A stretch of DNA of 64,000 nucleotides, taken from assembly GCA_964650185.1 (NCBI GenBank), contig CAZYRN010000001.1:46284-110283 (forward strand). Direction: 5' to 3'. Position numbers and translations under genes: made by a program. The DNA is from an uncultured Pseudomonadales bacterium (GTDB taxonomy: Bacteria; Patescibacteriota; Microgenomatia; UBA1400; PJMF01). The notes under the pieces were generated by a model. That model saw only the letters and a program-made list of their open reading frames with translations. It was not told the DNA's origin and did not search any database. Position 1 is the stretch's first letter. Each line of letters starts with the position of its first letter. Shown here one piece after another: positions 326-25,549 of this stretch.

Positions 326-1600
326 GTGTATACTGAAAAACAGATGAATCTCTCGGCTAAAAAATCTGCTTTATTGAACTCTACTGGCATAAAATTAATC
401 AGCTATTCTGTTATCGGCGATATGGCTGCGAGTTTAATGGGTGGTTTAGCAACTATTCTTATCTCAAGACGACTTGGCCCAGCCGGCTTTGGTCAGTTTA
501 GTGCTGGATTTGCCCTGACCCAAATCCTGGTCCGAGTTAATGACCTGGGTTTGAGTATGGCGACTACCAAGTTTATTGGTCAGTCAAAAGATAGACTACA
601 GCAGACATCATTCTATAGTCTGATTACTCGATACCGACTGATGCTAAGTGTGGTGATTGTTGCTTTGGGCCTGCTAGCAACAGGTTTTTTAGTCTCAGGT
701 GAGAATAAGACTATTTTAATGGCAGCAGTGGTAGTAACGCTGGCTACAGTTTATTTTGAACATCTTCGTTTTTCCCTCCAGGCTTTACAGTGGATTAAAC
801 AGTCCAGTGTGGCAAATGTGTTTCAGGGCATGATTAAGATGTTGGTGGCGAGCGCGGCTTTCTTTTCCCAAGGTATAAATGTTTTAGTTGTTTTTATGGC
901 ATATATGACTGCACCACTGGTACCTGTAATATTTCGGAGGTATTTTTCTCCAGCCTGGTTAAAAAATTCACTAGTTCAGATTAATTCTAAACAAAAATTT
1001 GCTGTTCACGGTTTTCTCAAACACTCAGCGGTAGCGGTGGTAAGTGCTGGAATTGTTGAAAATTTTGATGTCTTGCTGGCGGCATATTTTTTAAATGATT
1101 ATCAAACAGGCTTATTAGGAGGAGTGACAAAAATTGCGTTGTTTCTTTATATTATCGCTTACGCCATTGGTAATGTTCTTAATCCCAGAGTAGCCGGATA
1201 CACCAGGATTCAATTGAGAAGTTATTATAAGAAAGCTCTCGGCGTGTTAGTGATGGCTTTAGGTGGATTCTTGGTAGCATGGCCGTTAGCGCCATATTTA
1301 ATTACTTGGACAATCGGAGTCGAATATCTGCCTGCCCTAAATGTATTGAGAATTCTGTTGGCCTCTGGGTTCATAAGCATTGGTTTGATGCCGTTTCAAG
1401 CCATCTTCTACGCATTAACTAAAGACTGGTACTTTTCCTTAACTGGCCTGGCTCAAGTGTTGGTCATTGTCGGTGGCGGATTCCTTTTAACGCCAATATT
1501 TGGCATTGAGGGTTTGGCCTGGCTTAGACTGGCTTCAAGGGGAATGTTATTAGTGTTGGCATTGATGGGAAGTGGTTATTTCTTGAGTAAGAAAAATTAA
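326..1600 (+). CDS. Wzx/MOP-family polysaccharide biosynthesis exporter (flippase-like), polytopic membrane protein
   Basis: 424-aa ORF, hydrophobic throughout with about 12 predicted TM helices. The architecture matches oligosaccharide flippases. GTG start at 326; an alternative ATG lies at 344. Confidence 0.55.
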   Translation: MYTEKQMNLSAKKSALLNSTGIKLISYSVIGDMAASLMGGLATILISRRLGPAGFGQFSAGFALTQILVRVNDLGLSMATTKFIGQSKDRLQQTSFYSLITRYRLMLSVVIVALGLLATGFLVSGENKTILMAAVVVTLATVYFEHLRFSLQALQWIKQSSVANVFQGMIKMLVASAAFFSQGINVLVVFMAYMTAPLVPVIFRRYFSPAWLKNSLVQINSKQKFAVHGFLKHSAVAVVSAGIVENFDVLLAAYFLNDYQTGLLGGVTKIALFLYIIAYAIGNVLNPRVAGYTRIQLRSYYKKALGVLVMALGGFLVAWPLAPYLITWTIGVEYLPALNVLRILLASGFISIGLMPFQAIFYALTKDWYFSLTGLAQVLVIVGGGFLLTPIFGIEGLAWLRLASRGMLLVLALMGSGYFLSKKN

Positions 1601-2508
1601 CCCCACAGCTCCACAAAATAATCCACCGTTCTTCTTATTCCAGTCGTGAAGTCCACTTCTGCTGACCAGCCCAACTCTCTTTTAGCTTTACTGGCATCGG
1701 CGGTTAAGACTAAAGGATCTCCTGGGCGGGGGTCAAAGTGCTTAATATGGGGTTCTTTTTCTAAGGCGGTGGCAATGGTGGTAATGACATCCATCACTGA
1801 TTCCGGATGCTCTGTAGATAAATTTAAATAGTGATACTGCTGTGGCTCCCGCTCTATTAGTTCCAATGCCCGCAGGTGAGCACTGACAATATCATCTATG
1901 TAAACGTAATCACGCTCATGCTCGCCGCTGCCCCACACTGTCACCACATCTTCTTCATAAATTTGTTTAATAAATCGCGGAATGGCGTGTGTTTCCGGCT
2001 GATGATGCTCTTCCGGCCCATACAGATTAAAGTAACGCAGCGCCACACCGGTCATGCCGGCTGTTTCGACATATGATCTCAGCAAACCTTCCATCGCCAG
2101 CTTAGTCATGCCATAGGGATTAATCGGCAGTGTTCGATCGTCTTCTTCAATTGGCACCTTAACTGGTTCGCCATAGATAGCAGCACTTGATGAGAAAATG
2201 AACGTTTTTAGGCCATTTAAGCGCATCGCCTCCAAGACAGAAACTGTTCCTGAGATGTTGTAATCGACATATTTTTGCGGTTGCTCGACGGACTCGCCCG
2301 CTTCTATCAAAGATGCTAAATGAAAGACCACGTCCGCGTCTGCAATTAACTCCATCATTTTAGCCGCGTCACGCACGTCAGCGATGATGGTGTCAAATTC
2401 TGGGTTCACTTTTAAATCAATGATTTTCAGCTCGTGACCCGCTTGGGTTAAAGCTCTGCATAAATGTCTGCCTAAAAATCCGGCTCCGCCAGTGACGATA
2501 ATGCGCAT
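1597..2508 (-). CDS. NAD-dependent epimerase/dehydratase (UDP-sugar 4-epimerase GalE-like)
   Basis: N-terminal MRIIVTGGAGFLGRHL (GxxGxxG) and a YxxxK-region / YFNLYGP typical of short-chain-dehydrogenase-type sugar epimerases. 303 aa. Confidence 0.8.
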   Translation of the reverse strand: MRIIVTGGAGFLGRHLCRALTQAGHELKIIDLKVNPEFDTIIADVRDAAKMMELIADADVVFHLASLIEAGESVEQPQKYVDYNISGTVSVLEAMRLNGLKTFIFSSSAAIYGEPVKVPIEEDDRTLPINPYGMTKLAMEGLLRSYVETAGMTGVALRYFNLYGPEEHHQPETHAIPRFIKQIYEEDVVTVWGSGEHERDYVYIDDIVSAHLRALELIEREPQQYHYLNLSTEHPESVMDVITTIATALEKEPHIKHFDPRPGDPLVLTADASKAKRELGWSAEVDFTTGIRRTVDYFVELWG

Positions 2509-2545
2509 ATATTTCCTATCTGTGTATTGCCGCGGCTGGCGGCTG

Positions 2546-3748
2546 TTATGCTACCCAGTATCCTTGAATAAATAGTATTGTATTAAAGATTAGCCAGAAT
2601 GTCGAAAGGACTAACCAGATGATGGCAAGACGGCGGCGCTGCTGGAGTAATTGAGTCATCAAGAGAAAGATGGCGAAGCTGCCCAATAAATAGCGCGGCA
2701 GACTCGAGAAGGTGCCGGTGAGAGTGGGGAGAATGAAGGCGAGGGCGCTAAAGATGACGTAGCTGCGGCGGACTTTGAACCAAGCCCAGATCAGAGCAAT
2801 GGTGCCAAACACACCGGCGAGAAATTCCTGAACATAAGCAAAATACTTTAAATCAATTGGACGAGCGGTTGCTAGAATTTTTAAATATCTCCAAATTACT
2901 TGAGGCAATAAAATAATAGTTTCTTGTCTTCCCGCACCAAATTCCTCTTGAACGTGAAAAAAGTATAGTGGATCGTTAAAAACAATTTTTAAATAAACCA
3001 TATAAGCAATTAAACCAGAGGCACCCATAATAATTATTAATATGTTCTTGTAGTTAGACTTTATAAAGCCGGGAAAATCTACATTTTTGAATAAATATTT
3101 TTGCTCCATAAGTTCCCATACAAGAGCTGGCACAAGAAATACTCCAGTAATTCTAGTTGCAGAAGCTAAAATGGTTAAAAGTGAGGCAGTTAGCCATCTT
3201 CCTTTTTTAGCTTCAATAAAGCACGATAAAACAAAGAATAAAAACATGGCTTCGGTATAAAGTGCATTGAAAAAAAGAGCCGTTGGAAATAAAAACAAAA
3301 CAAGAGTTCCAGTCCACTTTGGAAGTCCTTCAAGCTTTAGAAGATGTTGCCATTTGTATAGAAGGGCCAATGTAAATACAGACGATATTATAAAAAAGGA
3401 TATTTCGAAATGATTAAAAATGAAATTAATGATTCTTAATAATAAAGGGAAAAGTGGAAAAAATGCTTGAATTAATCCAGTTCCCAGATAACCCTTTTTA
3501 GCAATTATTAAATAATGAACACCATCAAAATTCATCCATGAGTATATAGGTTGCGGTAAACTTAAGTTAGCAAGTAATTCAGGATTTGAAAAAGTTGGAC
3601 TGTAAGGAATAAAGATTGACGCTAAAAATGCTGCAATCATTAGTCCAAACTTCCAGGATAGATAGAAACCCAATCGTTGGCCAAAGATCCTCACCAGACC
3701 ATAAAATAGAATTCCGAAGAAAATGATTCCAGAAACACTATTCCCCAC
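2546..3748 (-). CDS. Integral-membrane GT-C type glycosyltransferase, PIG-V/GPI-mannosyltransferase-like
   Basis: 400 aa and polytopic. The motif region NFDGVHYLIIAKKGY...AFFPLFPLLL resembles the PIG-V (GT76) mannosyltransferase family. Confidence 0.45.
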   Translation of the reverse strand: MGNSVSGIIFFGILFYGLVRIFGQRLGFYLSWKFGLMIAAFLASIFIPYSPTFSNPELLANLSLPQPIYSWMNFDGVHYLIIAKKGYLGTGLIQAFFPLFPLLLRIINFIFNHFEISFFIISSVFTLALLYKWQHLLKLEGLPKWTGTLVLFLFPTALFFNALYTEAMFLFFVLSCFIEAKKGRWLTASLLTILASATRITGVFLVPALVWELMEQKYLFKNVDFPGFIKSNYKNILIIIMGASGLIAYMVYLKIVFNDPLYFFHVQEEFGAGRQETIILLPQVIWRYLKILATARPIDLKYFAYVQEFLAGVFGTIALIWAWFKVRRSYVIFSALAFILPTLTGTFSSLPRYLLGSFAIFLLMTQLLQQRRRLAIIWLVLSTFWLIFNTILFIQGYWVA

Positions 3749-3820
3749 CAGTCTCGGCCAGGTTTTCTGGGTAAACTGGGATTTAACTTCATAATTGCCT
3801 GGTTCAAGTTGATAAGCTAG

Positions 3821-5377
3821 CTATCCACCAATCTTATCATTATTGATGTAACTAGCTGGAAAGGTCTGATTTGTATCTTTATCTTTAATGTTGGTTTCCC
3901 AGCCGGCAAAATTCATGGTTGGCTCAATGATGGTGGCAGGCTTATCTACTTGAACTTGATAATGACGTGACGAACCCTGCCAGCGCAGAACCTGAATGTT
4001 AGCGCCTCGATCTTCTTCTAATACAGAGGGGACAGGCTGCCAATCCCGTATCTGATAATCATACCCAACTGGCGTGTTCTCATTTAAAGTTGTGCTGCTT
4101 TGGGTAAATGAGTCGTAATCTAGATTTGTCCGGTGAAAATAATCAATCGGTTTGGCTCGCCAGTGGCCAATCAGCTGAATTATGAGTAACAGCAGCCACA
4201 GCCAGCGGCCTTTAGCCGGTGTTTGCCGCCAAACCCAGACCATCACTGGCACAATAAGTACTGAGAAAAATAATGTTAGTCGCCAGGGAAACTGAATGTA
4301 ATTTGCCAGTGGGATCAACTGCCAGAGGGGGGTAGTGAAAGCTAGCTGAAATAAAATTAAAAGCAACGTTAAAATTACTACCACCCAAAGCCAGGAAAAT
4401 TTCCAATCTGATCGTTTATTAAAAAATCTCACGATCATTAAGACCAGAGCCACCAGCAACATCGTCCACTGAAGTAAGCCCATGCCAAAAGAAAGTCCAT
4501 CTACTGACCCCGGATAAGAAAAACCAAATCGAAGTGGTGCAAACAAAAGTTGTGACCAAGTCGCAAAATGACGCGTAAACTCATTTGATAGATTTGCCTG
4601 ATCTAGAACCACTAAGGATTTCTCTGCCAAAGCTGGTAGCCAAAACCATAACGAAAGCGCTAGGCCGCTCAAAATCATCCCACCTAATGACAACCAACTG
4701 CGCCAGTTTTTGCTCAGCCGCAGTGAAGCATAAAGCAAGATGATACCCATGCCAAATAAAACCGCCACATTATGTGATAAGAAAAACAAACCAAACAGCA
4801 GTGTCGGCCAAATCAACTTTGGCCAGTTTCGCCACTTTCGTAAATCCATCTGCCACTCGCCTGCTCTCACCTGCTCTACCAGCCGCAGCAGCCAGGGTAA
4901 AAAGGCCATCGCCATCACCTCGCCAATGCTGCCGCGATAAATAATCGCCGTCAATAAATAAGGAGATAATGAAAAAAAGACTAATCCCAGCCATCTTTCA
5001 TAAAATTTAAACTGCCATGATTTAAGCCACTCATTCATTCCCCACAAGCCAAAAACTAGAAATCCCACCACCAGCAGTTTAAAAGTTAGTTCATAACTAA
5101 CACCCGCGATTGAAAATGGTAAACTCAAGATGTTTGCTAGTGGATAGTTATAGTTAAAGACCGGGTAGCCATAGTGATTGACTAGATTGGGGGCAAAACG
5201 AGGCGGAATTTGACCTTCCCTTACGGCCACCTTGTAGTTAGCAAATCTAGCTAAATGATTTTCACCATCATGAGTATAAGGAAAGCCAGCGTGAAAATAA
5301 TCATTCACATTCAACAGCGTCAGCAATAATATAAAAATTAAGAGTGGAAATTTGGCAAGAAAAGACAGCAATTTCAT
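3821..5377 (-). CDS. Large polytopic membrane protein, GT-C-like (PTPS-related/uncharacterised glycosyltransferase family)
   Basis: 518 aa with N-terminal FHAGFPYTHDGENHLARFANY followed by more than 10 TM helices. Its start overlaps the upstream gene's stop (ATGA). Confidence 0.35.
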   Translation of the reverse strand: MKLLSFLAKFPLLIFILLLTLLNVNDYFHAGFPYTHDGENHLARFANYKVAVREGQIPPRFAPNLVNHYGYPVFNYNYPLANILSLPFSIAGVSYELTFKLLVVGFLVFGLWGMNEWLKSWQFKFYERWLGLVFFSLSPYLLTAIIYRGSIGEVMAMAFLPWLLRLVEQVRAGEWQMDLRKWRNWPKLIWPTLLFGLFFLSHNVAVLFGMGIILLYASLRLSKNWRSWLSLGGMILSGLALSLWFWLPALAEKSLVVLDQANLSNEFTRHFATWSQLLFAPLRFGFSYPGSVDGLSFGMGLLQWTMLLVALVLMIVRFFNKRSDWKFSWLWVVVILTLLLILFQLAFTTPLWQLIPLANYIQFPWRLTLFFSVLIVPVMVWVWRQTPAKGRWLWLLLLIIQLIGHWRAKPIDYFHRTNLDYDSFTQSSTTLNENTPVGYDYQIRDWQPVPSVLEEDRGANIQVLRWQGSSRHYQVQVDKPATIIEPTMNFAGWETNIKDKDTNQTFPASYINNDKIGG

Positions 5378-22790: not shown

Positions 22791-24203
22791 TTACTCTTTA
22801 TTGATACTGGGTTTAATCTGCAAACCGAGCTCGTCTAGTTGTTCTTCAGCCACTGTTGAAGGTGCATCCATGACCGCTGTTCGGCCAGTTGATGTCATCG
22901 GGAAAGCAATTGACTCTTTAATCGATGTTTCTTGAGCCAGCACCATCACGTGACGATCCAGACCTAGGGCTATGCCGCCATGAGGGGGTGTTCCCACAGC
23001 AAATGCTTCTAACATATGACCAATGTTGGCTTCAATTTCCTCATCTGAGTAACCCATAATACGGAATGTTTGTCTCAGCACCTCTGGTTGATGGGCTCGA
23101 ATGCTGCCTCCGCCGACTTCATAGCCGTTACAGACCAGGTCATATTGCGTTGATAGTATCTGGTCAATGTTTTCACCTGCCAGATGATCTGCTAAAAACT
23201 CTGCTTTAGGCTGACTAAAAGGATTATGGGTGAAGGTCCAGCCACTGCGGCCATCAGCTACTTCAGCAGCATCACTGCGATCTACTTTTTTGAAGAAAGG
23301 AAAATCAACTACCCACGCAAAAGCCAATAAGCCCTGTTTCTTTTCGTCCTCAGTCCGAAAGTCAAACTTATCAGCTCCAAATTTTTCAATTGCTTCCTGG
23401 TAGGTAAATACGGGAAACTGCTGATCCTTAAGCTGGCCTCCGACAGTGGTGACGGCTTCTTTAACCATCTCCTCTACCGTCTGCATCACTTCTTCTCGAG
23501 ATACAAAGCTCATTTCTAAGTCGACTTGAGTATGTTCAAAACCGCGATCGGCTCGTAGATCCTCATCTCTGATGCAGCGGGCAAATTGAAAATACCGCTC
23601 AACCCCAGCTGTCATCAAGAGTTGTTTATACTGTTGTGGGCTCTGCGGTAGAGCATAAAACTTGCCGTGCTGAAAACGTGACGGCACAATAAAATCTCTC
23701 GCCCCTTCTTTGGTGGATTTTGTCAACAAAGGCGTCTCCACTTCCACAAATTCTCGTTTGTATAAAGCTTCACGCAAGGCACGAGAATAATCGGAACGAA
23801 GTTTCAGATTCTGTCTCATTCTGGAGCGACGTAAATCTAGATAGCGATATTTAAGCCGAGGTTCTTCACCAATCTCATAGCCATCACTATCTAGTTGAAT
23901 TGGTAATTCCTTGGATTTGTTGAGCACCTCATATTCAGCTACTTCAATTTCGACAGTGCCAGTGGCTAAATCAGGATTGATATTTCGCTCTGACCGATCT
24001 TTAACTAAACCAGTAATTTTTACTACCGATTCAACCGTCAACTCGCCCAGCATATTGACCCCCACACACTGTATTAAAGAAGTCCGATCTCTCAAATCAA
24101 TAAAAGTCACTTTGCCATGATCGCGCTTACTATCCACCCAGCCCATAACCGTGACGGTCTGGCCCGATAATGTAGGTGTATCAATAATCATGGTTCGTTT
24201 CAT
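22791..24203 (-). CDS. aspS: Aspartyl-tRNA synthetase, bacterial-type motifs but lacking the GAD insertion domain (470 aa)
   Basis: Motif 2 FARCIRDEDLRADRGFEHTQVDLEMSF and motif 3 GGGSIRAHQPEV...GLDRHVMVL. The region between them is about 130 aa shorter than in E. coli AspRS. Confidence 0.9.
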   Translation of the reverse strand: MKRTMIIDTPTLSGQTVTVMGWVDSKRDHGKVTFIDLRDRTSLIQCVGVNMLGELTVESVVKITGLVKDRSERNINPDLATGTVEIEVAEYEVLNKSKELPIQLDSDGYEIGEEPRLKYRYLDLRRSRMRQNLKLRSDYSRALREALYKREFVEVETPLLTKSTKEGARDFIVPSRFQHGKFYALPQSPQQYKQLLMTAGVERYFQFARCIRDEDLRADRGFEHTQVDLEMSFVSREEVMQTVEEMVKEAVTTVGGQLKDQQFPVFTYQEAIEKFGADKFDFRTEDEKKQGLLAFAWVVDFPFFKKVDRSDAAEVADGRSGWTFTHNPFSQPKAEFLADHLAGENIDQILSTQYDLVCNGYEVGGGSIRAHQPEVLRQTFRIMGYSDEEIEANIGHMLEAFAVGTPPHGGIALGLDRHVMVLAQETSIKESIAFPMTSTGRTAVMDAPSTVAEEQLDELGLQIKPSINKE

Positions 24204-24412
24204 CTAGCTCCTTAAATATATTTATAGCAAAAAACCCTCTTTCAACCACCCGCAGATGATCAAAAGAGGGTTTTAAATAAACGGTGCCACCTCTAATTTA
24301 ACTTCATTCCAGCTGTGATGGGCTTACCCAGCTTGGTTGCGACCCCAAGCAGCTCTCTCTAAGTCGAGAATTACCCGCTGTCAACGGATTCTAGAGCTGT
24401 TTTTTTTCTGGT
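24204..24412 (-). promoter_or_regulatory. T-box-like riboswitch leader upstream of aspS (Asp specifier GAC; reduced Stem I)
   Basis: On the minus strand the conserved T-box sequence AATTAGAGGTGGCACCG (plus 24282-24298) overlaps an antiterminator/terminator pair and is followed by the AAGGAG RBS and the aspS ATG. A candidate specifier GACA sits in a short hairpin loop (plus 24379-24382). The variable T-box base C is complementary to the G73 discriminator expected for tRNA-Asp. Confidence 0.55.
24228..24276 (-). terminator. Intrinsic terminator of the aspS leader (T-box terminator helix)
   Basis: 12-bp stem AAAACCCTCTTT / AAAGAGGGTTTT with about a 20-nt loop, followed on the minus strand by TTTTTTG, about 20 nt upstream of the aspS RBS. 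Confidence 0.55.
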
Positions 24413-24415
24413 GTA

Positions 24416-24444
24416 ATCGTAACATAGCAATTTTTACTTGACAA
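24416..24444 (-). promoter_or_regulatory. Candidate sigma70-type promoter for the aspS leader (TTGTCA-N17-TACGAT)
   Basis: -35/-10-like hexamers with 17-nt spacing on the minus strand. The opposite strand carries TTGACA-N16-TAAACT facing the divergent gene 24491. Confidence 0.35.
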
Positions 24445-24490
24445 GCTTAGAGAACTTAGTAAACTGCACCAAAAGTAGAATGAAATTATT

Positions 24491-25549
24491 ATGGACAGAA
24501 AATTTATCCCATCTACACCATTGGACAGAGTTTTCTTAGGCAATGGCAATGGTCAAACTATTACTAATCATGAGGTGCCACGATATCCAGAATATGATCT
24601 AGTTACATCTCCAAGTGAAATTAATCCTAGAAGTTTTGCTAAATCAGTTGAAACTTGGAACTCTTCTCGAATTCGAATATTAATGAAATTAGCTAGCTCC
24701 TGTTTAAATAATATTGACCCCAACACATATGCTTTGGTTTTAACCGGCTCTGATGCTCGAAGAGAGAAAGGGCCATACTCTCCATTTGAATTATTGGTTA
24801 TTGCTTCAGACAAAGGTGTTGCTGAATACATTAGGTCAACCATATTTACCAATTTATGTAAGAGAAATAGACGTAATTTATGGAATGAAATTGATCCAGA
24901 TATAGAAATAAAGATTATTGGAAAACAGAGAAAACATGATGAATATATCTCTGGATACTTAGGAGATAAGCTTCATCCATGGCCAGACAGAGTTTTAGCT
25001 GGTCAAATATTAGCTGGAAATCCAGACTTTCTACAAGAAGCAAGGTTGTCAACTGTTGATGAATTTATTCATTCAAGTTCTATTAGAAGAAGAATTAGAA
25101 GGAGACTTAGCGGTCTAATTCGCATTGTAGAGACAGGAGGTTTGAGAAATGAGCAAACACCCCGTCTCCATTTCGATGAAGAAATACTTTATTTTAATCC
25201 TGATCAATATGTTTTAGGTTTTAAACATAATATTATGAGACTTATTCAGGTAATTACTACTCTTCGACAATTAGAGTCTGAGGATTCAATTACTTCTAGA
25301 TTGGCCGTTGATACAAACACTATTAATAGACTTTCAGAGTTATTTGGTTCAGTAGCTCCCAGTTTATTAGAGGCTACTGCCGATGCCTATGCACTAGCAT
25401 TATGGTCATATCATGTTCAGCAGTGGAGGTATCAAAAGTATGAACAATCTAGCGAAGCTGCTTCTTTATATTTAGGAAAGAATCTTATTAAAATTGTGAC
25501 ATCGACGGTGTTATTTTTTGCAAATGAGGTGAGATCAACTGAGTTTTAG
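24491..25549 (+). CDS. Hypothetical protein with degenerate GlnD/GlnE-like nucleotidyltransferase motif; AT-rich orphan gene
   Basis: 352-aa ORF, markedly more AT-rich than its neighbours. LVLTGSDARREKGPYSPFELLVIA mimics the Pol-beta NTase GS-x9-SDIDLL motif, but with P-F-E replacing D-x-D. Confidence 0.35.
   Translation: MDRKFIPSTPLDRVFLGNGNGQTITNHEVPRYPEYDLVTSPSEINPRSFAKSVETWNSSRIRILMKLASSCLNNIDPNTYALVLTGSDARREKGPYSPFELLVIASDKGVAEYIRSTIFTNLCKRNRRNLWNEIDPDIEIKIIGKQRKHDEYISGYLGDKLHPWPDRVLAGQILAGNPDFLQEARLSTVDEFIHSSSIRRRIRRRLSGLIRIVETGGLRNEQTPRLHFDEEILYFNPDQYVLGFKHNIMRLIQVITTLRQLESEDSITSRLAVDTNTINRLSELFGSVAPSLLEATADAYALALWSYHVQQWRYQKYEQSSEAASLYLGKNLIKIVTSTVLFFANEVRSTEF

Follow-up and report, generated by a model that had tools for sequence, protein, structure and literature searches.

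The 64-kb window, the whole stretch of DNA that was analysed, carries on its minus strand an aspS gene and, upstream of it, a structured leader whose features are collected in Table 1. All leader coordinates given here are window positions read on the minus strand. The aspS product is a 470-aa AspRS of the bacterial type without the usual insertion domain. It matched NCBIfam models NF001750 (578.9 bits) and TIGR00459 (510 bits), exceeding the cutoff of both and aligning to each in two stretches, as well as Pfam tRNA-synt_2 and an OB fold. The TTGTCA-N17-TACGAT promoter put forward in a preliminary description of this DNA was recovered by a promoter scan, which added the TG extension. From this predicted promoter, transcription probably starts near 24409; similar predicted promoters lie directly 5' of Stem I in the relatives.

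Table 1. Features of the aspS leader and aspS in the 64-kb window
Feature	Coordinates	Strand	Elements	Basis
Sigma-70-type promoter (predicted)	24416..24444	-	-35 TTGTCA 24444-24439; 17-nt spacer; TG-extended -10 TACGAT 24421-24416	promoter scan, 9/12 matches + TG
Stem I, whole	24350..24399	-	basal helix CAGCUCU (24399-24393) with AGAGCUG (24356-24350); K-turn-like junction GA...AA, G24391 A24390 with A24372 A24371; 14-16-nt insert (24370-24357)	sequence; relatives with basal helix of other sequence in same place (by eye)
Stem I apical hairpin	24373..24389	-	helix AUCCG (24389-24385) with CGGGU (24377-24373); 7-nt loop UUGACAG (24384-24378)	loop-anchored pairing, covariation, model alignment
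Specifier GAC + purine	GAC 24382-24380, A24379	-		conservation, codon-gene tracking
Reduced Stem II	24332..24349	-	CUUGG (24349-24345); loop GGUCGCAA (24344-24337); CCAAG (24336-24332)	RNAalifold on structure-blind MAFFT alignment
Stem IIA + F-box block	24306..24331	-	UGGG-UAAG-CCCA 24330-24319; F-box-like CCAUCA 24321-24316; then CAGCUGGAAU	pairing, RF00230 alignment
Purine-rich linker GAAGUUAAAUU replacing Stem III	24295..24305	-	RAG purines kept as GAAG, 24305-24302	linker lengths, RF00230 alignment
T-box core + antiterminator	24265..24294	-	A1 AGAGG (24294-24290) with CCUCU (24269-24265); 7-nt bulge UGGCACC 24289-24283; A2 GUUU (24282-24279) with AAAC (24273-24270), 4 bp; loop AUUUA	sequence, folding, relatives
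Intrinsic terminator	24229..24274	-	20-bp hairpin, 24274-24255 with 24250-24231, loop UGCG; U6 tract 24234-24229	folding; relatives
aspS incl. RBS	22791..24213	-	RBS AAGGAG 24213-24208; ATG 24203-24201	NCBIfam + Pfam matches

Architecture of the aspS leader

The basal helix of Stem I is the outer helix CAGCUCU/AGAGCUG of the preliminary description, and it is present as drawn there. At the junction with the apical helix, the GA on its 5' side and the A on its 3' side are ~90% conserved, and RF00230 places the equivalent junction elements of a relative, L125, on its K-turn base; the Stem I junction may fold as a K-turn. Relatives have a second small hairpin at the position of the insert. Misalignment of the 5' part of a plain alignment kept RNAalifold from recovering Stem I, and anchoring on the loop motif resolved it. 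When flank pairing was tested with the loop motif alone as anchor, the flanks in 25 Asp-type leaders were paired at 5/5 positions in 19 and at 4/5 in 6, against a background of 1.8% (5/5) and 6.9% (4/5). Within the apical helix 95.7% of cells were paired, all 5 pairs displayed double-sided changes, covariation was 0.79 vs 0.32 (0/500 shuffles), and alignment to covariance model R1 (see below) gave zero non-standard pairs. The inner helix AGAAU/AUUCU that had previously been assigned to this region can pair, but AUCCG/CGGGU is preferred as the loop-closing helix by comparison with relatives, by the MFE fold and by alignment to the covariance model. The loop itself does contain the GACA that had been noticed earlier: in Asp-type leaders the GAC is invariant and the A that follows is >90% conserved. 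The predicted partner of the specifier GAC is the tRNA-Asp anticodon, GUC.

The Stem II hairpin, the Stem IIA/F-box block and the missing Stem III went unmentioned in the preliminary description. All 6 RNAalifold pairs of Stem II exhibited compensatory double changes, and RF00230 matched the equivalent hairpin of L125 to the Stem II of the model. The Stem II loop of relatives is often GGUAGUAA, resembling the 3' half of the canonical S-turn, and Ile-type relatives keep AAGAAA...GAGUAGAA; the loop in the window has no recognisable GAA/AGUA S-turn. By analogy with class III structures (PMC7583486), Stem II may clamp the anticodon. The closing pair of Stem IIA was paired in 95/95 leaders, with four C-G to U-A double changes, and ACGGGUAAGCCCGUUA of the relatives was aligned by RF00230 to Stem IIA/F-box. 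A 2-bp Stem IIB helix (GC with GC) is possible, with one compensatory case (L002). A third pseudoknot pair (loop position 73 with position 86) was rejected, since it was paired in 22/95 leaders, fewer than the mean of 33 in the shuffles. The stretch linking the IIA/B block to the core measures 16 nt and lacks a hairpin in the window; it is <=18 nt in 86/95 leaders, and 8 leaders of the 95 have a clear Stem III hairpin. In the alignment of L125 to RF00230, 19 Stem III positions are represented by 1 nt.

The conserved T-box sequence AAUUAGAGGUGGCACCG was found exactly at 24298-24282, where it had been reported, and its AGAGG is complementary to the CCUCU with which it had been proposed to pair. 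The resulting antiterminator has a dG of -3.7 kcal/mol. Its A1-bulge-A2-A1' layout was present in 78/92 leaders compared to 4.3% of shuffled controls; an earlier parser, which sometimes paired A1 with the U-tract, was replaced. The base pair at the foot of A2 is G24282-C24270 in the window, not G·U, and across the family this pair was G-C in 56 leaders, G·U in 11, A-U in 7, U-A in 5 and C-G in 1. The terminator (dG -26.8 to -28.3 kcal/mol) was correctly said to compete with the antiterminator and to lie upstream of AAGGAG, but the hairpin has 20 bp rather than the 12 bp given for it. The terminator ends 15 nt before the RBS. Because its 5' arm contains the 3' strands of both A2 and A1, antiterminator and terminator are mutually exclusive. 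With a terminator defined as a U-run together with a hairpin of -8 kcal/mol or lower, 72/95 leaders had one (a stricter rule under-counted terminators that start in the A2 loop), and the 5' terminator arm overlapped the antiterminator 3' strands in 62/62 parsed leaders. The aspS RBS falls outside the terminator hairpin and any predicted helix.

A few family members (L083/L134, L146, L151 and L161) have no terminator. L161, a GC-rich ileS leader with the F-box CCGUCA, matched the IIA/B-plus-core search pattern and looks actinobacterial.

Detection, distribution and codon-gene association

A cmsearch with RF00230, suggested as a check in the preliminary description, was negative: the window gave no match at the gathering threshold or at E <= 10, and neither did 20 orthologous loci match. 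Relatives scored 22-54 bits, below the gathering score of 93, with a best alignment of E = 2e-9 (54 bits). In these alignments the K-turn base, Stem II, IIA/F-box and antiterminator were in register, and distal Stem I and Stem III were deleted; for L125, 76 distal Stem I positions were replaced by the 7-nt loop. The negative result with RF00230 reflects the dependence of the Rfam model on a long Stem I, not absence of a T-box. Weak Rfam matches to L10-leader, SpR14 and miRNA models were chance matches to the terminator hairpin. The reduced class escapes standard annotation by Rfam and is probably missed by TBDB as well, whose class I set was reportedly built with RF00230 and whose class II model is said to have been run only on Actinobacteria. 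In the literature searched, we found no prior description of T-boxes in Candidate Phyla Radiation/Patescibacteria lineages.

Detection instead came from the relatives. Covariance model R1, which combines the Stem I apical hairpin, Stem II, Stem IIA/F-box and the T-box core, was built from 20 leaders of other genomes only, with the window excluded. It matched the window at 24282-24393(-) with 86.6 bits (E ~1e-17), covering positions 1-109 of 109 with all 14 pairs standard. The seed sequences themselves score 78-98 bits, and the second-best match in the 64 kb scored 11.5 bits. The 9-mer GGTGGNACC by itself was not significant (1 match vs 0.65 expected), unlike decoding module and core together in this leave-one-out model. 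The reading of this leader as a T-box with an Asp specifier, a very short Stem I and an antiterminator/terminator platform, already advanced in the preliminary description, is supported by orthologous and paralogous leaders and not by Rfam.

The same leader architecture was present at 18/80 orthologous aspS loci from Patescibacteria species representatives, or about a fifth; the GAC loop, UGGC bulge and core, expected to be conserved if the reading were right, are kept in 17-18 of the 80 related genomes. A specifier-agnostic scan returned 88 further metagenome loci with this architecture. The genes 3' of these loci encode SerRS (24), AspRS (18+2), IleRS (19), TrpRS (3), ValRS (3) and ProRS (2), and others are phosphoserine-phosphatase-like genes and one PEP carboxylase. 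Ile, Asp and Ser versions occur together on one 1.19-Mb contig. A 434-aa gene behind leaders with a CGC loop had no match in Pfam or NCBIfam, and T-box-like cores at L004:6819, L067:2892(-), L068:2489(-), L001 and L012 were discarded as coding sequence or unrelated leaders. Across the leader family the elements are present and conserved, Stems I, II and IIA covary, and the 3' structures are mutually exclusive.

Loop codon and bulge base vary with the regulated gene across the family. The codon in the apical loop matches the gene, being GAC for Asp, AUC for Ile, and AGC or UCC for Ser. Under a position-specific mechanical rule fixed in advance, loop positions 3-5 were cognate in 43/72 Asp, Ile and Ser leaders, with 4 cross-calls, and 0/100,000 permutations reached 43; most of the non-cognate leaders resolve by eye to the cognate codon in loops of 6-9 nt. 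A looser rule (any 6-9-nt loop with codon plus purine) was abandoned, as it gave many off-diagonal matches and missed AGC-C loops. The discriminator of bacterial tRNA-Asp is G73, which the UGGC bulge base would fit. The bulge base in Asp-type leaders was C in 29 and U in 4, never A or G; it was C or U for Ser and Trp, and U for Val and Pro. The tRNAs in the fetched loci had G73 for Ser and Asn, and A73 for Pro (3) and Val (2); the organism's own tRNA-Asp was not found in the window, within ~10 kb beyond each window end, or among the 26 tRNAs of the fetched loci. Judged from these sequences, the bulge base would fit a G73 discriminator in the case of Asp, Ser and Trp, and an A73 discriminator in that of Val and Pro. 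Usually, tRNA-Ile has A73, and Ile leaders are split between U (9) and C (8), such that 8/17 carry a UGGC that mismatches it; contig Ga0233431_1000002 has an ileS leader with UGGC.

Proposed attenuation model and alternative explanations

We consider it about 90% probable that the aspS leader is a reduced-type, tRNA-Asp-sensing T-box riboswitch that controls aspS by transcription attenuation; we infer that the leader binds tRNA, distinguishes charged from uncharged tRNA and actually terminates transcription. After transcription begins near 24409, the nascent RNA would fold into the short Stem I, whose 7-nt apical loop would display GAC followed by A, together with the small hairpin of Stem II and the Stem IIA/F-box hub. 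With its GUC anticodon, tRNA-Asp would meet the GAC in a loop-loop contact, and the 3' end of uncharged tRNA, G73-C-C-A, would pair with UGGC of the 7-nt bulge and stabilise the weak antiterminator (A1 AGAGG/CCUCU, A2 GUUU/AAAC). With the antiterminator formed, RNA polymerase would read through into aspS. If the tRNA were charged or absent, the 20-bp terminator with its U6 tract would form, and transcription would stop ~25 nt 5' of the start codon.

It is improbable that the leader is instead a tRNA-independent attenuator, that is, a constitutive or protein-controlled terminator whose T-box likeness is incidental or a decayed remnant. Such a reading accords with the lack of significance of the 9-mer core alone in the window, with the lack of an Rfam T-box match, and with the absence of Stem III, of a platform for elbow binding and of the G·U sensor pair. 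It conflicts, however, with the E of ~1e-17 obtained with the leave-one-out model, with a loop codon that follows the regulated gene across six synthetase families and a bulge base that appears to follow the discriminator class, with covariation of the decoding helices, and with an antiterminator geometry found in 78/92 leaders vs 4.3% of shuffles; a decayed remnant would not retain codon, bulge, covariation and geometry across species. We rate even lower a translational T-box of the actinobacterial ileS kind, in which the RBS is hidden or exposed and transcription is not stopped. The nearest known architecture, with its ultrashort Stem I, is translational (PMC7583486), the family includes the few leaders without a terminator named above, and one of these, L083, has a CCCUU...AAGGG adjoining the start codon. 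In the window, however, AAGGAG lies 15 nt 3' of the U tract and outside predicted helices, and the hairpin that competes there, with 20 bp, -28 kcal/mol and U6, is a classic intrinsic terminator of the sort present in 72/95 leaders.

Two further explanations concern the identity of the decoding element. A second GAC (24365-24363, in CGACUUAGAG) could be the specifier of a conventional Stem I, in which an internal loop separates the outer helix from the inner helix AGAAU/AUUCU and carries the specifier on its 3' side, as in long-Stem-I T-boxes. In classical T-boxes the specifier does occupy a 3'-side internal loop immediately over the basal helix, a GAC occurs at that place, and pairing of AGAAU with AUUCU is possible; but this segment is unconserved, relatives having a variable small hairpin or nothing in its place, and the second GAC is followed by U, not a purine. 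Since the GAC-A of the apical loop is invariant, its helix covaries, and AUCCG/CGGGU is the helix drawn by the MFE fold as well as by the model alignment, we regard the internal-loop specifier as lower in probability still. Least probable of all is a tRNA-mimic operator to which AspRS would bind and so regulate its own gene, as happens for E. coli thrS. With the pattern Y-U-NNN-R-N and 7 nt above a 5-bp stem, the Stem I loop is laid out like an anticodon loop, but in every class its triplet is the codon (GAC, AUC, AGC) and not the anticodon (GUC, GAU, GCU), which excludes such an operator; the UGGN bulge and the antiterminator would also be left without a role.

Relation to known T-box classes and significance

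The closest known relative of the window leader is the class III, ultrashort Stem I ileS T-box of Actinobacteria, represented by Nocardia farcinica and Mycobacterium tuberculosis (Sherwood 2015; structures 6UFM and 6UFG, cited in PMC7583486 and PMC10482949). This likeness had been drawn in the preliminary description, and the short Stem I and apical-loop specifier bear it out. Both have a short Stem I without the elbow-binding double T-loop, a K-turn-like base, a specifier in the apical loop that has C at the third codon position and a purine after it, Stem II followed by a Stem IIA/F-box hub, and the same UGGNACC discriminator core. In contrast to class III, the platform of the window leader is an intrinsic terminator rather than an SD sequestrator, its loop has 7 nt rather than 5-6 nt (PMC10482949), the Asp-type Stem II is reduced to a hairpin of 5-6 bp that carries an 8-nt loop, and Stem III is absent. 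Class III also serves ileS only and belongs to Actinobacteria, whereas the reduced class serves Asp, Ser, Ile, Trp, Val and Pro and its hosts are Patescibacteria.

Several features are likewise shared, or predicted to be shared, with class I (B. subtilis tyrS type, RF00230), namely codon-anticodon pairing, pairing of the UGGN bulge with NCCA, A1 and A2, competition of terminator and antiterminator, the K-turn base, Stem IIA/F-box and the RAG purines. In class I, however, Stem I carries an internal specifier loop, an AG bulge and distal interdigitated T-loops as the contact for the tRNA elbow. All of these are missing in the window, where a 7-nt loop caps Stem I ~5 bp beyond the K-turn-like junction. 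Stem III with its flanking purines (RRRNG-Stem III-AA) is missing too, and the A2 base pair, a conserved G·U in class I, is mostly G-C in the reduced family; the G·U wobble at the base of A2 has been described as a steric sensor of the 3'-aminoacyl group (PMC7583486). Class II glyQS of B. subtilis and G. kaustophilus is, like the window leader, a naturally reduced transcriptional T-box with the same discriminator core and terminator logic, and its reduction indicates that T-box modules can be lost. The losses are nonetheless opposite, since glyQS lacks Stem II and IIA/B and keeps the long Stem I elbow contact and Stem III. Firmicute aspS or hisS-aspS T-boxes have a long Stem I, are found by RF00230, and carry Asp or Asn specifiers and a bulge base that fits G73. 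They regulate the same function (AspRS), but the window leader has a minimal architecture and belongs to a different phylum. T-box regulation of aspS is mentioned for Clostridium acetobutylicum (PMC2494555).

Transcriptional T-boxes are said to need a long Stem I and elbow contact for fast tRNA capture, Stem III and the A2 G·U pair are described as an aminoacyl sensor, and ultrashort Stem I's accompany translational control in Actinobacteria (PMC7583486). Three elements important in experiments on model T-boxes are missing here: the distal Stem I platform for elbow binding, Stem III, and the G·U pair at the foot of A2. Since an ultrashort Stem I occurs together with strong terminators and without Stem III in the window leader and ~100 relatives, these RNAs offer a direct test of those generalisations. 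We hold at even odds the broader view that Patescibacteria (CPR) harbour a large, unannotated class of minimal transcriptional T-boxes that present the codon in a 7-nt, anticodon-loop-like Stem I loop, make no elbow contact, usually lack Stem III, have no conserved G·U sensor pair, and act through strong terminators on at least six synthetase genes as well as biosynthesis genes.

If that is true, co-transcriptional tRNA capture and charge sensing would need far less RNA than current models call for or, alternatively, CPR hosts would provide a missing helper, for instance a protein or a polymerase that is slow or pauses. The review literature leaves open which T-box class came first (PMC7583486), and a reduced, multi-specificity class in a deep-branching lineage would bear on the ancestral architecture. 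At ~180 nt, the class would also provide a natural minimal scaffold on which to carry out structural studies and to engineer switches that respond to tRNA, and tRNA-sensing regulation of synthetases would be common in the reduced genomes of the CPR.

Anatomy and expression platform of the aspS leader

Every element listed in the preliminary description, which proposed an Asp T-box leader in front of aspS, was found in the sequence. The terminator is present, but its hairpin (20 bp) is longer than described; likewise, the Stem I outer helix and GAC loop stand, but the inner helix is better drawn as AUCCG/CGGGU.

Features of the aspS leader, in window coordinates
Feature	Position	Strand	Remark
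Leader interval	between divergent ORF 24491-25549 (+) and 470-aa ORF 22791-24203 (-)	-	leader read on minus strand
Promoter TTGTCA-17-TACGAT, TG extension	24444-24416	-	promoter scan
Stem I outer helix CAGCUCU/AGAGCUG	24399-24393 with 24356-24350	-	encloses apical hairpin
Stem I apical hairpin AUCCG-UUGACAG-CGGGU	24389-24373	-	
Second hairpin (Stem II) CUUGG-GGUCGCAA-CCAAG	24349-24332	-	
IIA/F-box block UGGGUAAGCCCAUCACAGCUGGAAU	24330-24306	-	
Purine-rich linker, 16 nt	between IIA/F-box block and T-box core	-	
T-box core/antiterminator AGAGG-UGGCACC-GUUU-AUUUA-AAAC-CCUCU	24294-24265	-	
Terminator, 20-bp hairpin and U6 tract	24274-24229	-	
RBS AAGGAG; ATG	24213-24208; 24203	-	downstream of terminator

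The 470-aa ORF matched bacterial-type AspRS profiles above cutoff (NF001750, 579 bits; TIGR00459, 510 bits), with the match falling into two parts, as the insertion domain usually located between the catalytic motifs is absent. The retrieved CPR orthologues (loci L001-L080) are all similarly short (~465-480 aa). A near-palindrome, AGCTTGTCAAGT (24436-24447), supplies the -35 TTGTCA of the leader promoter as well as the perfect -35 TTGACA (24438-24443) of a predicted promoter, TTGACA-16-TAAACT, serving the unannotated divergent ORF.

Folding gave energies of -3.7 kcal/mol for the antiterminator and -28.3 kcal/mol for the terminator, the 5' arm of which holds the 3' strands of A2 and A1, the antiterminator helices flanking the UGGN bulge. 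The RBS lies outside the terminator hairpin. Across the family, a hairpin of -8 kcal/mol or lower (median -25) followed by a U-run was present in 72 of 95 unique leaders, and the terminator overlapped the antiterminator 3' strands in 62/62 leaders with a parsed antiterminator. A few members without a terminator (L083/L134, L146, L151 and L161, the last a putatively actinobacterial-looking, GC-rich ileS leader) may act on translation. L083 and L134, which precede archaeal-type AspRS genes, lack a U-run terminator, as do L146 and L151; in L083 the A1 3' strand CCCUU is able to pair with AAGGG immediately before the start codon, suggesting that this reduced leader type also has a translational form that sequesters the SD. 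In two leaders (L068 and L108), GGUGGCACC recurs exactly ~40 nt downstream of the core, within the 3' portion of the expression platform and directly ahead of the U-run; by pairing with the first copy or the sequence flanking it, this repeat may serve as an atypical terminator arm.

Detection and covariation across orthologous leaders

The search proposed in the preliminary description as a check, using the Rfam T-box model RF00230, returned no match for the window at gathering or at E <= 10 (371-nt region), nor for any of 20 orthologous loci. A single copy of the 9-mer GGTGGNACC is present in the 64-kb window, against an expectation of 0.65; therefore, this motif alone proves nothing. An AspRS protein search retrieved 80 loci in species-representative genomes (56-74% identity), all of them Patescibacteria/CPR MAGs (Microgenomates, Pacebacteria, WWE3 and others). 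UGGCACC or UGGUACC lay upstream of aspS in ~18 of the 80, compared to ~1.6 expected by chance, and these leaders have in common a YUGACAN-loop hairpin, a CGGGUAAGCCCGUAAUAGCAGGAAU block, an aGGUGGCACCG core and a terminator. A covariance model (R1) of 20 reduced leaders, built with the window left out and annotated for the Stem I apical helix, Stem II and Stem IIA, matched the window at 24282-24393 (-) over its full length with 86.6 bits (E ~1e-17) and zero non-standard pairs; its second-best match in the 64 kb scored 11.5 bits. The model also matched 18/80 aspS loci. At one of these, L024, the leader (GAC/UGGC) is followed by a 446-aa archaeal-type class IIb synthetase gene (1586-3004) directly upstream of the bacterial-type aspS (3001-4419), whose start overlaps its stop, placing two Asp-type synthetases in one operon under a single leader. 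R1 found no reduced-family leader before a 472-aa class I synthetase gene (Pfam tRNA-synt_1g, MetRS-like) at ~58.2-59.6 kb of the window (L171:2024-3442); therefore, not all synthetases of this genome are under such control.

For Stem I, hairpins were selected by the loop motif YYGACRN alone, which matched each of 25 Asp-type leaders once. Of the five positions on either side, all paired in 19 leaders and four in the other 6, compared to 1.8% and 6.9%, respectively, of 3,213 other YYGACRN occurrences. When leaders were aligned on the loop, 95.7% of cells paired, versus 27-41% when the alignment was slid. All five apical pairs displayed double-sided changes, and covariation was 0.79 compared to 0.32 in shuffles, with 0/500 shuffles attaining 0.79. 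RNAalifold, applied to a structure-blind MAFFT alignment, predicted both the Stem II hairpin, all six pairs of which showed compensatory changes, and Stem IIA, whose closing pair was paired in 95/95 leaders and included four C-G to U-A changes. The A1-bulge-A2-A1' geometry was present in 78/92 leaders versus 4.3% of shuffled controls. A third pseudoknot pair, which we had proposed for the candidate IIB pairing, was rejected on testing across leaders.

Specifier codons, downstream genes and the bulge base

A metagenome scan for the IIA/F-box block, a gap and GGTGGNACC, with the specifier left unspecified, yielded 88 loci. Downstream genes encoded SerRS (24), IleRS (19), bacterial-type AspRS (18), archaeal-type non-discriminating AspRS (2), TrpRS (3), ValRS (3), ProRS (2), phosphoserine-phosphatase-like (2) and Nudix (2) proteins, an archaeal-type PEP carboxylase (1) and, at four loci, an unannotatable 434-aa protein. 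Contigs of 1.0-1.4 Mb bear multiple leader copies, with Ile, Asp and Ser versions together on one 1.19-Mb contig. Upstream of the IIA block, the 7-nt apical loop reads YU-GAC-AN for aspS, YU-AUC-AN for ileS, and YU-AGC-NN or CU-UCC-AA for serS. Under a rule fixed in advance (the 7-nt-loop hairpin with the longest stem, codon at loop positions 3-5), the cognate amino acid was called in 43/72 Asp, Ile and Ser leaders, and 4 leaders were cross-called to another of these classes; the count never exceeded 31 in 100,000 label permutations. By eye, most of the leaders left over have a cognate codon plus purine in 6-9-nt loops, and the other genes follow CCU-A or CCA-A (Pro), GUC-A (Val), UGG (Trp), GAC-A (PEP carboxylase) and UCA (phosphoserine phosphatase). 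The consensus of the loop, Y-U-N-N-C-A-M, is laid out like an anticodon loop. Its third codon base was C in 41/43 leaders, matching the 'C rule' that a review ascribes to Stem II contact (PMC7583486).

Non-synthetase genes behind this leader type include the archaeal-type PEP carboxylase behind GAC-A (Asp; L105:2103-3602(+)), a PspA-like phosphoserine phosphatase behind UCA (Ser; L152:1490-2113(-)), a SerB-like HAD phosphatase whose leader loop, UGACGAG, is ambiguous (L103:350-1021(+)), and Nudix hydrolases behind UCC (Ser; L086 and L125). The 434-aa ORF (L156:8932-10233(-), L149, L144 and L082) follows the loop GUCGCGA (CGC, Arg) and bulge UGGU, and had no Pfam or NCBIfam match; a tRNA-Arg(GCG) with A73 is present in the fetched CPR loci, and the gene may be arginine-related. 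In two aspS leaders (L002 ~2742-2760; L142 (-)), the Stem I loop is 9 nt long, CGUAAC(A/G)(C/A)C, with AAC (Asn) in place of GAC. This suggests that aspS in these organisms would respond to tRNA-Asn, the behaviour expected of a non-discriminating AspRS that supplies the transamidation route.

The variable base of the UGGN bulge, which is predicted to pair with tRNA discriminator base 73, was C in 29 and U in 4 Asp leaders, C in 14 and U in 7 Ser leaders, C in 3 Trp leaders, and U in 3 Val and 2 Pro leaders. Among tRNAs within the fetched loci, those for Ser and Asn have G73, and those for Pro (three) and Val (two) have A73; the bulge bases agree with these discriminators, C or U facing G and U facing A. 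These loci contained no tRNA-Asp or tRNA-Ile, and no tRNA-Asp lies within the window or ~10 kb past each end; this organism's tRNA-Asp is presumed to carry G73, as is general for bacterial tRNA-Asp. Ile leaders were split (U 9/C 8), with UGGC in 8/17 (L089, L110, L116, L126, L139, L143, L148 and L154) and UGGU in the other nine. The usual discriminator of bacterial tRNA-Ile is A73. A single 1.05-Mb contig combines an Ile leader with UGGC and a Ser leader with UGGU.

Relation to known T-boxes

RF00230 (gathering score 93), run with permissive settings, gave sub-threshold scores for some members, namely L125 (54 bits, E = 2e-9), L161 (35.9) and L097 (22.2). The L125 alignment is in register at the K-turn base (GCGAUGA...GAGC), Stem II, Stem IIA/F-box, the Stem III-flanking purines and the antiterminator, whereas 76 distal Stem I positions are reduced to 7 nt and 19 Stem III positions to 1 nt. 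The linker between IIA/B block and core is <= 18 nt in 86/95 leaders, and Stem III is evident in eight. The A2 base pair is mostly G-C (G-C 56, G·U 11, A-U 7, U-A 5, C-G 1), in contrast to the conserved G·U that is described as the main steric sensor (PMC7583486). A valS leader (L121:1971-2158(+), GC 52%; 52.9 bits with RF00230) has the same IIA/F-box block together with a long canonical Stem I bearing AGAGA and distal-loop motifs; therefore, long and minimal Stem I versions share downstream modules.

A short Stem I with an apical-loop specifier has been described solely for the translational ileS T-boxes of Actinobacteria (class III), and transcriptional T-boxes are stated generally to require a long Stem I (PMC7583486 section 6.2; PMC10482949). 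Early surveys placed T-boxes in Firmicutes, Actinobacteria, Chloroflexi, Deinococcus-Thermus and a few Proteobacteria (PMC2494555). For TBDB, RF00230 was used to gather the class I set, and the class II model was applied to Actinobacteria only (PMC7778990). The literature searched, which covered few subscription papers and may therefore miss an earlier description, contained no report of T-boxes in candidate phyla.

Taken together, anatomy, covariation and codon-to-gene correspondence indicate, with a probability of about 0.9, that the window leader is a tRNA-Asp T-box attenuating aspS transcription, and the T-box interpretation of the preliminary description was essentially right; tRNA binding and charge sensing are predicted from sequence. 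The leader falls outside both RF00230, as that family is defined, and class III of Actinobacteria. Its architecture is more reduced still: the specifier loop is apical and 7 nt long, Stem II is miniature, Stem III is missing, the A2 base pair is G-C and the platform is a terminator. The leader is one instance of a multi-amino-acid family widespread in Patescibacteria.
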